From Escherichia coli (GTDB taxonomy: Bacteria; Pseudomonadota; Gammaproteobacteria; Enterobacterales; Enterobacteriaceae): a DNA stretch of 64,000 nucleotides. A program made the position numbers and the translations under genes. The stretch lies in assembly GCF_965641715.1 (NCBI RefSeq), contig NZ_OZ282453.1; one strand, 5' to 3'. Shown here piece after piece: positions 1 to 4,347 of this stretch. Each line of letters begins with the position of its first letter. Position 1 is the stretch's first letter. Below the pieces are notes generated by a model. The model was not told the DNA's origin. It was given only the letters and a program-made list of their open reading frames with translations, and did not search any database.

Positions 1-76
1 TTTCACCGCATTTCATTGCAACAATTATGAAACAAGGCTAAACCCAATATTCGGTTTCTTAACTTTGCGGTGCGCT

Positions 77-1663
77 ATGGCACATCCACCACGGCTGAAT
101 GACGACAAACCGGTTATCTGGACGGTATCTGTAACGCGCCTGTTCGAGCTGTTTCGCGATATCAGCCTCGAGTTTGATCACCTGGCGAACATTACCCCTA
201 TTCAGCTTGGCTTTGAAAAAGCAGTGACCTACATCCGCAAGAAACTGGCAAACGAACGCTGTGACGCCATCATCGCTGCTGGCTCTAACGGCGCGTACCT
301 GAAAAGCCGCCTATCAGTGCCAGTTATTTTGATTAAACCGAGCGGCTACGATGTGTTACAGGCACTGGCAAAAGCCGGAAAACTCACCTCTTCTATCGGC
401 GTTGTCACTTATCAGGAAACTATTCCGGCACTGGTGGCGTTTCAAAAAACCTTTAATTTGCGCCTCGATCAACGTAGCTACATTACCGAGGAAGACGCAC
501 GCGGGCAGATTAACGAGCTAAAAGCTAACGGCACCGAAGCGGTGGTCGGTGCGGGGCTGATTACCGATCTGGCAGAAGAAGCCGGAATGACCGGAATTTT
601 TATCTATTCCGCCGCCACCGTGCGCCAGGCGTTCAGCGATGCGCTGGATATGACGCGCATGTCGTTACGCCATAACACTCACGATGCCACCCGCAACGCC
701 CTGAGAACTCGTTACGTGCTGGGCGATATGCTCGGTCAATCACCACAGATGGAACAAGTACGGCAGACTATTTTGCTGTATGCCCGCTCCAGTGCAGCGG
801 TGTTGATTGAGGGGGAAACGGGGACGGGCAAAGAGCTGGCGGCCCAGGCAATTCATCGGGAATATTTTGCCCGCCACGATGCGCGACAGGGCAAAAAGTC
901 GCATCCGTTTGTTGCCGTCAACTGCGGGGCGATTGCCGAATCGCTGCTGGAAGCGGAGCTGTTTGGCTATGAGGAAGGGGCGTTTACCGGCTCGCGACGC
1001 GGAGGTCGTGCCGGGCTGTTTGAAATCGCCCACGGTGGCACGCTGTTTTTGGATGAGATTGGCGAAATGCCGCTACCTTTGCAGACCCGGCTGCTGCGGG
1101 TGCTGGAAGAAAAAGAGGTCACCCGCGTCGGCGGGCATCAGCCTGTTCCGGTGGATGTACGGGTCATTAGCGCCACTCACTGCAATCTGGAAGAAGATAT
1201 GCGGCAAGGGCAGTTTCGCCGTGACCTGTTTTATCGGCTGAGTATTTTGCGTCTGCAATTGCCACCACTGCGCGAGCGGGTGGCGGATATTCTTCCGCTG
1301 GCGGAAAGCTTTTTGAAAGTGTCTCTGGCGGCGCTCTCCGCCCCGTTTTCTGCCGCATTACGCCAGGGATTACAGGCAAGCGAAACCGTGCTGGTGCACT
1401 ACGACTGGCCGGGCAATATTCGAGAACTGCGCAATATGATGGAGCGACTGGCGCTGTTTTTAAGTGTGGAACCGACGCCGGATTTAACGCCGCAGTTTTT
1501 GCAGCTGCTACTGCCGGAGCTGGCGCGCGAGTCGGCGAAAATTCCCGCTCCACGCTTACTGACACCACAACAGGCACTGGAGAAATTTAAAGGCGATAAA
1601 ACAGCAGCGGCGAATTATTTAGGCATCAGCCGGACGACGTTCTGGCGGCGGCTGAAAAACTGA
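77..1663 (+). CDS. prpR: Sigma-54-dependent propionate catabolism regulator PrpR
   Basis: 528 aa from first ATG inside tool ORF 65..1663; N-terminus [20 protein letters not shown]+ Walker A GETGTGKE and GAFTG sigma-54 contact motif; C-terminal HTH. Confidence 0.9.
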
Positions 1664-1665
1664 AC

Positions 1666-1697
1666 TGCCGAATGCAGCGCGAACGCTTTATCCGGCA
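1666..1697. repeat. Single REP-like palindromic unit between convergent prpR and yahO
   Basis: tgccgaatgcagcgcgaacgctttatccggca closely resembles one palindrome of the REP units in the array at 8409..8953. Confidence 0.55.
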
Positions 1698-1763
1698 TAA
1701 ATTTCAATAGATGATGATCACCGATAAACTTACGCATCGGGGATGTTTACATAGGGTTCAGAA

Positions 1764-2039
1764 TTACTTCTTCTTATAAATATTTGCCGTGCCGTGGATC
1801 TTATTGTCAGTTTGACCGGAGGTCAGTACCAACACATCAGCCCCTTTTTCATCCGCTTTTTTGATCAAATCCTCTTTCGCATCTGCGGTCGACATTTCAT
1901 TACTGGTTGAAATATCACCTATTTTTTCATATTGCGATTCGACTTTTTCAAATTCCGCTTTAGTCATCAATTCAGCGGCATAGACATTGGTAACGGCAAA
2001 CGCTAACGCACCGACTAACATTTTAGAGATTATTTTCAT
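1764..2039 (-). CDS. yahO: Small periplasmic protein YahO (DUF1471/YhcN family)
   Basis: 91 aa with N-terminal signal peptide [21 protein letters not shown]; matches remembered YahO. Confidence 0.85.
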
Positions 2040-2185
2040 ATTACGGCTCCAGAGTTGTTATCACACTATCACCCACCCACATTATTGGGTTGATTAATAA
2101 TTAGTTCAGTCAAGGCATAAACGCCAGTAACCGGAAATAAGACACTTTGTGATCTCTCTCGCACCCGATTATTTTTGGTAGAAAT

Positions 2186-2857
2186 ATGATGAAGTTACTT
2201 CACTTATTTATGGATGAAATCACTATGGATCCTTTGCACGCCGTTTACCTGACCGTAGGACTGTTCGTGATTACTTTTTTTAATCCGGGAGCCAATCTCT
2301 TTGTGGTAGTACAAACCAGCCTGGCTTCCGGTCGACGCGCAGGGGTGCTGACCGGGCTGGGCGTGGCGCTGGGCGATGCATTTTATTCCGGGTTGGGTTT
2401 GTTTGGTCTTGCAACGCTAATTACGCAGTGTGAGGAGATTTTTTCGCTTATCAGAATCGTCGGCGGCGCTTATCTCTTATGGTTTGCGTGGTGCAGCATG
2501 CGCCGCCAGTCAACACCGCAAATGAGCACACTACAACAACCGATTAGCGCCCCCTGGTATGTCTTTTTTCGCCGTGGATTAATTACCGATCTCTCTAACC
2601 CACAAACCGTTTTATTTTTTATTAGTATTTTCTCAGTAACATTAAATGCCGAAACACCAACATGGGCACGTTTAATGGCCTGGGCGGGGATTGTGCTCGC
2701 ATCAATTATCTGGCGAGTTTTTCTTAGTCAGGCGTTTTCTTTGCCCGCTGTGCGTCGTGCTTATGGGCGTATGCAACGCGTTGCCAGTCGGGTTATTGGT
2801 GCAATTATTGGTGTATTCGCGCTACGCCTGATTTACGAAGGTGTGACGCAGCGGTGA
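2186..2857 (+). CDS. yahN: LysE/RhtB-family amino-acid exporter
   Basis: 223-aa hydrophobic multi-TM protein, matches remembered YahN. Confidence 0.85.
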   Translation: MMKLLHLFMDEITMDPLHAVYLTVGLFVITFFNPGANLFVVVQTSLASGRRAGVLTGLGVALGDAFYSGLGLFGLATLITQCEEIFSLIRIVGGAYLLWFAWCSMRRQSTPQMSTLQQPISAPWYVFFRRGLITDLSNPQTVLFFISIFSVTLNAETPTWARLMAWAGIVLASIIWRVFLSQAFSLPAVRRAYGRMQRVASRVIGAIIGVFALRLIYEGVTQR

Positions 2858-2873
2858 GCAGATAATTTACTCT

Positions 2874-3119
2874 CTACGTAATCAACCTGATTTGCCGAAT
2901 CCCGACCATCGGCGATGATAGCCCCCGTAATGCGTGGTCCTTATTTCCGATAAGTTTACTTGAGTCTTTAGCTTCCCATTTCAGCCCACTCTCCCCTGTG
3001 TGGGCTTTTTTCATTGGTCTGACCCGTCCTGAATAGCCAAACAATGGCAATGTTCCACTTTGCAGGGATGATAATAAGGGGATCTGATTCAGAAGAGTTT
3101 TGAAAAGTTGGACCGCCAT
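2874..3119 (-). CDS. yahM: Small uncharacterised protein YahM
   Basis: 81 aa from internal ATG of tool ORF 2874..3149; no recognisable motif; the yahN terminator hairpin lies on its antisense strand. Confidence 0.45.
   Translation of the reverse strand: MAVQLFKTLLNQIPLLSSLQSGTLPLFGYSGRVRPMKKAHTGESGLKWEAKDSSKLIGNKDHALRGLSSPMVGIRQIRLIT
2984..3011 (+). terminator. Intrinsic terminator downstream of yahN
   Basis: perfect 6-bp stem gcccac/gtgggc, 10-nt loop, then TTTTTT; about 125 nt after the yahN stop. Confidence 0.55.
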
Positions 3120-3531
3120 CGAGGCCTCGAACCCCGTACCATACAACAATCCTGGTTGTCGTCTGCTCTTCCTGATGAGCTAATGGCGGTTTTTGATATG
3201 AGCCTTACAGCATATTTTCTGTCAGGCTTGAGTGCGATGCGTAAGGTACAGAAAAGACCCCACACAAACATGATGGAATTATGATTTTTTTCATATGAAT
3301 GTCAACCCACACATTCACAAAACATCTGCATGAGATCATTTTTTATACACCGCATGGCTGCGAAACCACTACTGGTGCTTTTTTAAGCGAAGCGTCGCCG
3401 ATCACAACAAAATATCGGCGAAAAAGGCGGTGGAATGCCATTTGGCATACGGATATACAGATGAAATGATTACCTGCATTGCGATTCACTCTCTGGTGGA
3501 ATAACAACTTGCAGGTGGAACCCTTTCTGAA

Positions 3532-4347
3532 CTAAAGAGTGTAGCGGATTTTAACGTGCTTATTTACAGGATAATATCTGTCACCTAATTCCTGGACTCT
3601 ATTAGATATCCATTCATTTAATCGCGCATCATCTCTGTATGTTTTTACGTCCAGAACAGAGAGCAATAACATCACCAGTGATTCAGGAAAAACAGGGTAG
3701 ATATTTTTTAAGTGTAATAATAATCCATGCGCAAGTGCCTGCTTAATGGGCGCGTCTGTCTCCGGAATAGACGACATTTCGCGAAGCCATTTTTCCACAT
3801 GCATACACTCTTTCCCTTTAGGGAAAATTCTCAGCAAAGGCATATGGTGTTCAAGAAGAATACATTTGCAATCTGTTCGCACTGAATCGATAAACTGCAC
3901 TAATTTCTTAAGCCCGGTAAAGCGTCCAGCCTGCACGTTTGCTTTAATATCAAGAAACGCATCATCCTGGTCATATACCCAAACTGTCCCTTTTTGATTT
4001 TCAAGTATGCGAAAAACAAACTTAACCGGGTGATCAGGGTAATCCATCCAGTCATAAAATCCAGGGAAATCATTAAACTGCACATTTATGGTGAGTGCGT
4101 TATCGTCTGACCACTCACAGTCTCGTACGGCAGCCATGAGATGAATGAGTTTGTCGTCATCGACTAAATCATCACGACAATCATAAGGATAATCATAATA
4201 TTGTTTAATCAAAACCTTGAATATATCGACACAGGAAACCAGGGAGCTTTTGATATCCTCTGGTAACTGATTGTTTTTAACCGTATTAAGTATGCTTTGT
4301 TGCGTATATGGCATCAAATTATTGTGCGGAGCTTTTAATGATATCAT
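3532..4347 (-). CDS. yahL: Uncharacterised protein YahL
   Basis: 271-aa ORF with AT-rich codon usage; no recognised motif; position matches K-12 yahL. Confidence 0.7.
   Translation of the reverse strand: MISLKAPHNNLMPYTQQSILNTVKNNQLPEDIKSSLVSCVDIFKVLIKQYYDYPYDCRDDLVDDDKLIHLMAAVRDCEWSDDNALTINVQFNDFPGFYDWMDYPDHPVKFVFRILENQKGTVWVYDQDDAFLDIKANVQAGRFTGLKKLVQFIDSVRTDCKCILLEHHMPLLRIFPKGKECMHVEKWLREMSSIPETDAPIKQALAHGLLLHLKNIYPVFPESLVMLLLSVLDVKTYRDDARLNEWISNRVQELGDRYYPVNKHVKIRYTL

Follow-up and report, generated by a model that had tools for sequence, protein, structure and literature searches.

A hairpin antisense to the annotated yahM frame of Escherichia coli is likely the Rho-independent terminator of yahN

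Typical intrinsic terminators carry hairpin loops of 3–5 nt. The hairpin located downstream of yahN in Escherichia coli has in common with the intrinsic terminators of this species a G+C-rich stem of 7 bp, a run of six U residues that follows immediately, a position past a stop codon and a one-directional layout. It departs from the typical case in that its loop of 10 nt is at the long end, that it resides inside an annotated convergent coding sequence and that a mapped 3' end was not found. The locus also resembles the excludons, as yahM and yahN are listed among 165 convergent transcriptional overlaps detected by RNA-seq in MG1655 (ExcludonFinder; PMC12288877). Unlike in excludons, however, one of the partners is probably an untranslated stretch at the end of the xtpA mRNA and not a second protein gene. 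The minus-strand locus coincides with that of the published gene xtpA (b4845), including the transcription start site and ATG at position 3271, the ORF of 60 codons and the tRNA-like element at positions 3109–3189 of the 64-kb stretch of DNA analysed here, hereafter called the window. According to Muto et al. (J Biochem 2022), as cited through RegulonDB v12, xtpA is a leaderless mRNA with a tRNA-like sequence. Since xtpA is annotated in the K-12 RefSeq record and published, this minus-strand feature is already known; an earlier note on the window, made from the sequence alone, had overlooked the leaderless mRNA and its tRNA-like element. What we add is that the tRNA-like part is invariant even where a stop is present at xtpA codon 4, and that its origin lies in the argN slot of phages.

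Two further comparisons help to place the locus. The chromosomal element is like the phage argN slot in its length of 81 nt and in its expanded anticodon arm, which is also present in phiP27, mEp460 and pHX138. In contrast to the phage cluster, the chromosomal copy is solitary, that is, without ileZ, argO, Q or lysis genes nearby, and it is served by a promoter of its own and embedded in an ORF. The yahM frame, which is listed among uncharacterised genes (PMC11551758), is akin to the spurious or orphan y-ome ORFs of K-12, as it lacks homologues in other species, belongs to no family, has no function and shows neutral-like variation. Unlike other orphan ORF calls, the false call of yahM has a nameable cause, namely an AUG in the acceptor stem of the tRNA-like element combined with a Shine–Dalgarno (SD)-like motif in its T-loop. 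Measured against these systems, the hairpin is probably a terminator of the ordinary kind, accompanied by a probable mis-annotation of yahM.

The window derives from the E. coli chromosome, is 100% identical to strain 88-3493 and is oriented opposite to K-12. Window positions convert to K-12 coordinates by 345404 + (3119 − window coordinate), as there are no indels relative to K-12 in this region (Table 1). Nine records labelled as plasmids contain the chromosomal yahN–xtpA segment according to our scans of E. coli records; these copies may represent mis-assigned replicons or large chromosomal inserts. Further upstream in the window, positions 1624–1697 on the minus strand, between the prpR stop codon and yahO, yield a weak REP/naRNA4-like Rfam match (29 bits, below the gathering score) and also harbour a terminator-like hairpin. 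A published Term-seq 3' end at K-12 346858 (+) maps to this segment, indicating that the yahO terminator abuts the end of the convergent prpR gene.

Table 1. Features at the yahN–xtpA locus, in window coordinates.
Feature	Position	Strand	Source or remark
prpR	65–1663	+	ORF list, RefSeq annotation
yahO	1764–2039	−	ORF list, RefSeq annotation
yahN, 223 aa	2186–2857	+	ORF list, RefSeq, Pfam LysE, TIGR00949
yahN 3' UTR (putative)	2858–2982	+	antisense to yahM codons 47–81; co-conserved with yahN
intrinsic-terminator motif	2983–3011	+	7-bp stem AGCCCAC/GUGGGCU, 10-nt loop, U6; antisense to yahM codons 37–46
yahM annotated ORF, 81 codons + stop	2874–3119	−	RefSeq annotation of the 100% identical strain
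xtpA, leaderless, 60 codons	3089–3271	−	K-12 RefSeq b4845, 345252–345434; 31-nt overlap with yahM
tRNA-like cloverleaf, 81 nt	3109–3189	−	ARAGORN, MFE structure
sigma-70 promoter of the xtpA transcript	3278–3305	−	TTGACA, 16 nt, CATAAT
yahL	3532–4347	−	ORF list, RefSeq annotation

The earlier note had described a hairpin of the form gcccac-N10-gtgggc followed by TTTTTT at 2984–3011, and had placed it within the 81-codon minus-strand ORF yahM. A sequence ruler proves these coordinates exact, and the RefSeq annotation of the identical strain confirms the location inside yahM. On the plus strand, the arms occupy 2984–2989 (gcccac) and 3000–3005 (gtgggc), flanking the loop tctcccctgt (2990–2999), and the T-run extends from 3006 to 3011. 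In addition, T3006 can pair with A2983, which extends the stem to 7 bp with 5 G-C pairs. The hairpin starts 126 nt past the yahN stop codon (2855–2857) and is co-oriented with yahN; on the opposite strand, hairpin and T-run together read as yahM codons 37–46 (KKAHTGESGL). The segment 2970–3020 folds with −14.1 kcal/mol (z = −2.25), and an equally good fold of −13.1 kcal/mol is obtained for the hairpin on the minus strand. There, however, the stem is preceded by AAAAAA and followed by GAAAUGGG, providing no U-tract, and thus the terminator motif is one-way and belongs to the plus strand. The sequence features expected of an intrinsic terminator are found here: a G+C-rich stem-loop with an immediate U6, which satisfies the usual requirement of 4–6 or more U residues, downstream of and co-oriented with yahN. 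A strict scan of both strands of the window (perfect 7-bp stem, at least 5 G-C pairs, loop of at most 10 nt, at least 6 T in 8) returned this hairpin as the single site, compared to a mean of 0.03 sites in 30 dinucleotide shuffles (128 kb scanned). A standard terminator scan missed it because its loop limit is 8. An Rfam match to the "Betaproteobacteria toxic sRNA" (20 bits, E = 0.62) was rejected, as it reflects the generic terminator shape only. Likewise, a phage origin of the hairpin, the spacer or YahM was rejected; the 81 nt of the tRNA-like element alone match phages.

Conservation of the hairpin was assessed in a comparison anchored on YahN, using one genome per species. Orthologues of yahN are present in Escherichia, Citrobacter, Salmonella arizonae and diarizonae, and Edwardsiella. 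The window sequence downstream of yahN is Escherichia-specific, and neither the hairpin nor yahM has a homologue at the yahN loci of Citrobacter, Salmonella and Edwardsiella. Among E. coli, a divergent "E. coli" clade (L006) and E. albertii, the 14 stem bases and the six T residues show zero changes; the two differences in the E. albertii hairpin both affect loop bases. The yahN UTR around the hairpin diverges by 10–16% in the divergent clade and E. albertii. Over the entire 3' UTR, identity is 90.5% for the divergent clade and 84.3% for E. albertii, and the corresponding values for the yahN coding sequence are 87.2% and 82.3%. The hairpin is absent from Escherichia sp. E1V33, where the UTR is replaced, and from Escherichia sp. 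MOD1-EC7003, where it is deleted. In some B2 strains, a single C is missing from the 5' arm and a single T from the U-tract, leaving a fold of ~−7 versus −14 kcal/mol and a U5; the idea that this double deletion is compensatory was rejected, as the stem is weakened. Of 5171 complete E. coli records, 83% match the 60 nt up to the end of the U-tract perfectly, and ~17% deviate. The weakening in B2 and the absence from two Escherichia lineages imply that selection on the hairpin is not strong. As judged from these alignments, the motif appears to be under some, albeit not strict, constraint.

The same comparison revealed rearrangements in the neighbourhood. Three B2-type E. coli strains do not carry yahL, and yahK directly follows the xtpA module; two of these three have the weakened hairpin and all three a frameshifted yahM. 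In MOD1-EC7003, the hairpin, the tRNA-like element and the promoter of the latter have been lost through two deletions, so that yahN almost joins a truncated yahL. These deletions indicate that the hairpin/tRNA-like module is dispensable in that lineage.

The gene upstream of the hairpin is predicted to encode a LysE-family amino-acid exporter (Pfam LysE, E = 8e-60; TIGR00949). In the curated Term-seq data of Adams et al., no 3' end is listed at K-12 345500–345559 on either strand; the neighbouring yahO terminator is detected there. Weak expression of yahN in LB and M63 may account for the missing yahN end. TERMITe provided no matches for the yahN 3' end either. The claim of the earlier note that the hairpin terminates yahN thus finds support in position, orientation, canonical features and conservation, but not in a 3' end listed for yahN in the Term-seq set of Adams et al.

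As to the coding frame around the hairpin, the earlier note had left two options, namely that yahM is not a real protein-coding gene or that its codons are constrained by the antisense RNA structure. A version of the second option would be a young protein gene, arisen de novo and restricted to non-B2 E. coli, that is translated under particular conditions and in which the stretch KKAHTGESGL is fixed by the antisense yahN terminator. The frame of 81 codons is indeed intact in most sampled A/B1/D-type strains and annotated there by PGAP, and the codons covering the hairpin are invariant in the non-B2 alleles. However, the pattern of variation argues against such a gene. Across 11 E. coli alleles, yahM shows 3 synonymous SNPs as against 11 non-synonymous ones and 1 nonsense SNP, corresponding to a pN/pS of 1.26 in this small sample, as compared to 0.09 for yahN (35 synonymous and 10 non-synonymous SNPs in 11 alleles). 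One nonsense and three frameshift yahM alleles are included in this set: O157 carries the nonsense mutation Q12*, and PGAP flags yahM as "frameshifted" in three B2 strains. In the other lineages, the frame ends after 11 codons (divergent clade), 31 codons (E. albertii) or 17 codons (E1V33). A search of 5.8 billion protein clusters with YahM returned 61 matches, all from E. coli/Shigella and many of them truncated. YahM variants of ~80 aa with 47–66% identity switch reading frame and back, and these mosaics indicate that the openness of the frame was kept while the amino-acid sequence was not, which likewise speaks against a de novo gene. Neither a Pfam, NCBIfam or PHROG family nor a phage tblastn match was found for YahM.

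The start region of yahM provides an explanation for its annotation. The ATG (3117–3119) falls within the 3' acceptor strand AUGGCGG of the tRNA-like element, and the SD-like GAGG, 5 nt before this AUG, is the T-loop of the element. Gene finders therefore call yahM because the T-loop supplies an SD-like sequence at a suitable place. This sequence might be counted in favour of a young protein gene, but the cloverleaf sequesters both the AUG and the SD. The yahM frame as a whole is a composite of three parts that are unrelated to one another: codons 1–4 belong to the end of the tRNA-like element, codons 5–36 to a fast-evolving spacer, and codons 37–81 are antisense to the yahN terminator and 3' UTR.

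Published ribosome profiling is in line with the comparative evidence. At the yahM start, 0 CPM were recorded in 5/5 cell-free INRI-seq replicates and 0 in in-vivo Ribo-RET (PMC9825163 Table S2), with the qualification that INRI-seq misses ~30% of annotated starts and that a genuine start at the yahM AUG could be masked by the structure around it. In the same INRI-seq data, yahM RNA was in the pool and the starts of yahN, yahL, yahK and yahO were detected (PMC9825163). INRI-seq also gave a weak out-of-frame signal within the yahM oligo, at an ATG at window ~3028 (K-12 345495; 7 CPM, 3 replicates), which would give an ORF of 5 codons. The genes of the yahM locus have no entry in an acid-stress Ribo-seq supplement. 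Taken together, no purifying selection, broken frames and no initiation signal at the start, in vitro or in vivo, bear out the first of the two options: yahM is most likely an annotation artefact rather than a functional protein gene. A constraint on its codons by the antisense RNA structure is not needed, and we regard the de novo gene as very unlikely.

The transcript that traverses the yahM frame originates from the xtpA promoter. The xtpA ORF of the window agrees with K-12 b4845 in position and sequence, and its ATG is located at the transcription start site. The promoter matches the consensus at 11/12 positions, the transcript starts 7 nt downstream of it, and the promoter is conserved in all four Escherichia lineages. 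Adams et al. (2021) constructed a yahM fusion from the same start site, for which the cloning primer begins ATGTTTGTGTGG, and a Reg-Seq preprint confirmed the yahM promoter and reported its repression by IHF. Thus, an active promoter is present upstream of yahM, as a de novo protein gene would require, but it belongs to the leaderless xtpA ORF. The xtpA ORF is intact in E. coli and E1V33, and a TAG occupies codon 4 in E. albertii and the divergent clade; codons 5–27 show a dN/dS of 0.5–0.9. PHROG matches were obtained neither for XtpA nor for YahL. An E. coli-like metagenome bin (a MAG labelled Proteobacteria) has a 1-nt deletion at window ~3241 that cuts xtpA to 21 aa, which may be an assembly error. 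Adams et al. mapped a 3' end at K-12 345390, corresponding to window 3133 in the T-arm of the tRNA-like element, and a Rho termination region at K-12 345585 (score 6.2, p = 3e-33), corresponding to window ~2938 inside yahM. Rho termination within the yahM frame fits an untranslated tail and is a further argument against a yahM protein gene.

These data also bear on the possibility that the hairpin mainly serves the xtpA RNA. Here, exonucleolytic trimming after Rho termination would stop at the stem, thereby setting and protecting the mature 3' end, and the likeness to a yahN terminator would be secondary. In fact, the hairpin is equally stable on the minus strand, the Rho region lies ~45 nt downstream of it on that strand, and 3'-5' exonuclease trimming is described for Rho-dependent transcripts (PMC6061677). 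Yet the Adams et al. Term-seq lists contain no plus-strand K-12 3' end at 345540–345559, where such trimming should leave one, and the sole Term-seq end in the locus, 345390, is within the tRNA-like element. In addition, the perfect T6 on the yahN side would have no role. The distribution among lineages is equally hard to reconcile with a service to xtpA: E. albertii has kept the hairpin together with the yahN UTR while its spacer toward xtpA is unrelated, and E1V33 possesses xtpA without the hairpin. We therefore rate a primary role in xtpA RNA maturation as very unlikely.

The element at the core of the xtpA transcript deserves separate consideration. The MFE fold of the element takes the shape of a cloverleaf that comprises a 7-bp acceptor stem, both a D and a T arm and an encoded CCA; ARAGORN calls it a tRNA-like gene. 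The "anticodon" arm consists of a 7-bp stem and a 6-nt loop, CCAGGA, and thus departs from the canonical 5-bp stem and 7-nt loop (U33, purine 37); the Rfam tRNA model gave no match to the element at E <= 1. Both observations indicate that it is tRNA-like and not a decoding tRNA. The element is 77–86% identical to the argN slot, which is the middle of the ileZ-argN-argO cluster found downstream of Q in lambdoid/Stx phages and a phage-like plasmid. The rest of the yahN–yahL spacer yielded no phage matches. Among phages, the anticodon arm of the argN-slot tRNA is unusually variable: the anticodon is TCG (canonical tRNA-Arg) in PhiR49_2 and TGG in TL-2011c, and phiP27, mEp460 and pHX138 carry non-canonical 81-nt forms that are labelled "tRNA-OTHER".

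The chromosomal element is strikingly constrained. It is identical at 81/81 positions in E1V33, the divergent clade and E. albertii, whereas its flanks are 75–87% identical or unalignable. Its 60-nt core is perfect in 95.8% of E. coli records versus 76.8% for the spacer, and the single change in O157 converts a G.U pair of the T-stem to G-C. As the element is invariant despite the stops at xtpA codon 4 and a dN/dS of 0.5–0.9, protein coding alone would not explain its conservation, as far as four lineages allow this to be judged. We tentatively suggest that the functional minus-strand product could be the tRNA-like RNA rather than YahM, and perhaps not mainly the XtpA peptide either, the element being a domesticated copy of a lambdoid-phage argN; this reading is somewhat doubtful at present.

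Considering all lines of evidence, we find it likely that the hairpin and its U-tract constitute the Rho-independent terminator of yahN and that the yahM frame around it is not a functional protein gene. The yahN mRNA would end at the U-tract of the motif after a 3' UTR of ~150 nt, and the hairpin would keep yahN transcription from entering the xtpA/tRNA-like module in antisense orientation. In the opposite direction, the leaderless xtpA mRNA would start at 3271, read through the hairpin, which offers no U-tract that way, and be stopped by Rho near 2938. The yahN and xtpA transcripts would accordingly overlap at ~2938–3012, and yahM would represent a chance open frame that runs from the acceptor strand of the tRNA-like element through the spacer into the antisense of the yahN terminator and 3' UTR. 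That the hairpin is instead a chance palindrome or a decaying relic without present function is highly improbable: weakening in part of phylogroup B2, absence from two Escherichia lineages and no mapped 3' end in the Adams et al. Term-seq lists would agree with it, but a motif expected ~0.03 times per 128 kb is found just past a stop codon and correctly oriented, with stem and U-tract unchanged across ~16% background divergence.

For the annotation of E. coli, our results support removing yahM (b0327) from the protein genes or flagging it. Signals reported as "yahM" in transcriptomic data should be attributed to the xtpA/tRNA-like transcript together with its tail, which Rho terminates. As predicted from the sequence, the hairpin provides yahN with a concrete 3' boundary. 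The tRNA-like element is strictly conserved irrespective of the state of the xtpA frame, which suggests a function at the RNA level; if the tRNA-like RNA is indeed the functional product, the yahN terminator would also shield this RNA gene from antisense transcription.
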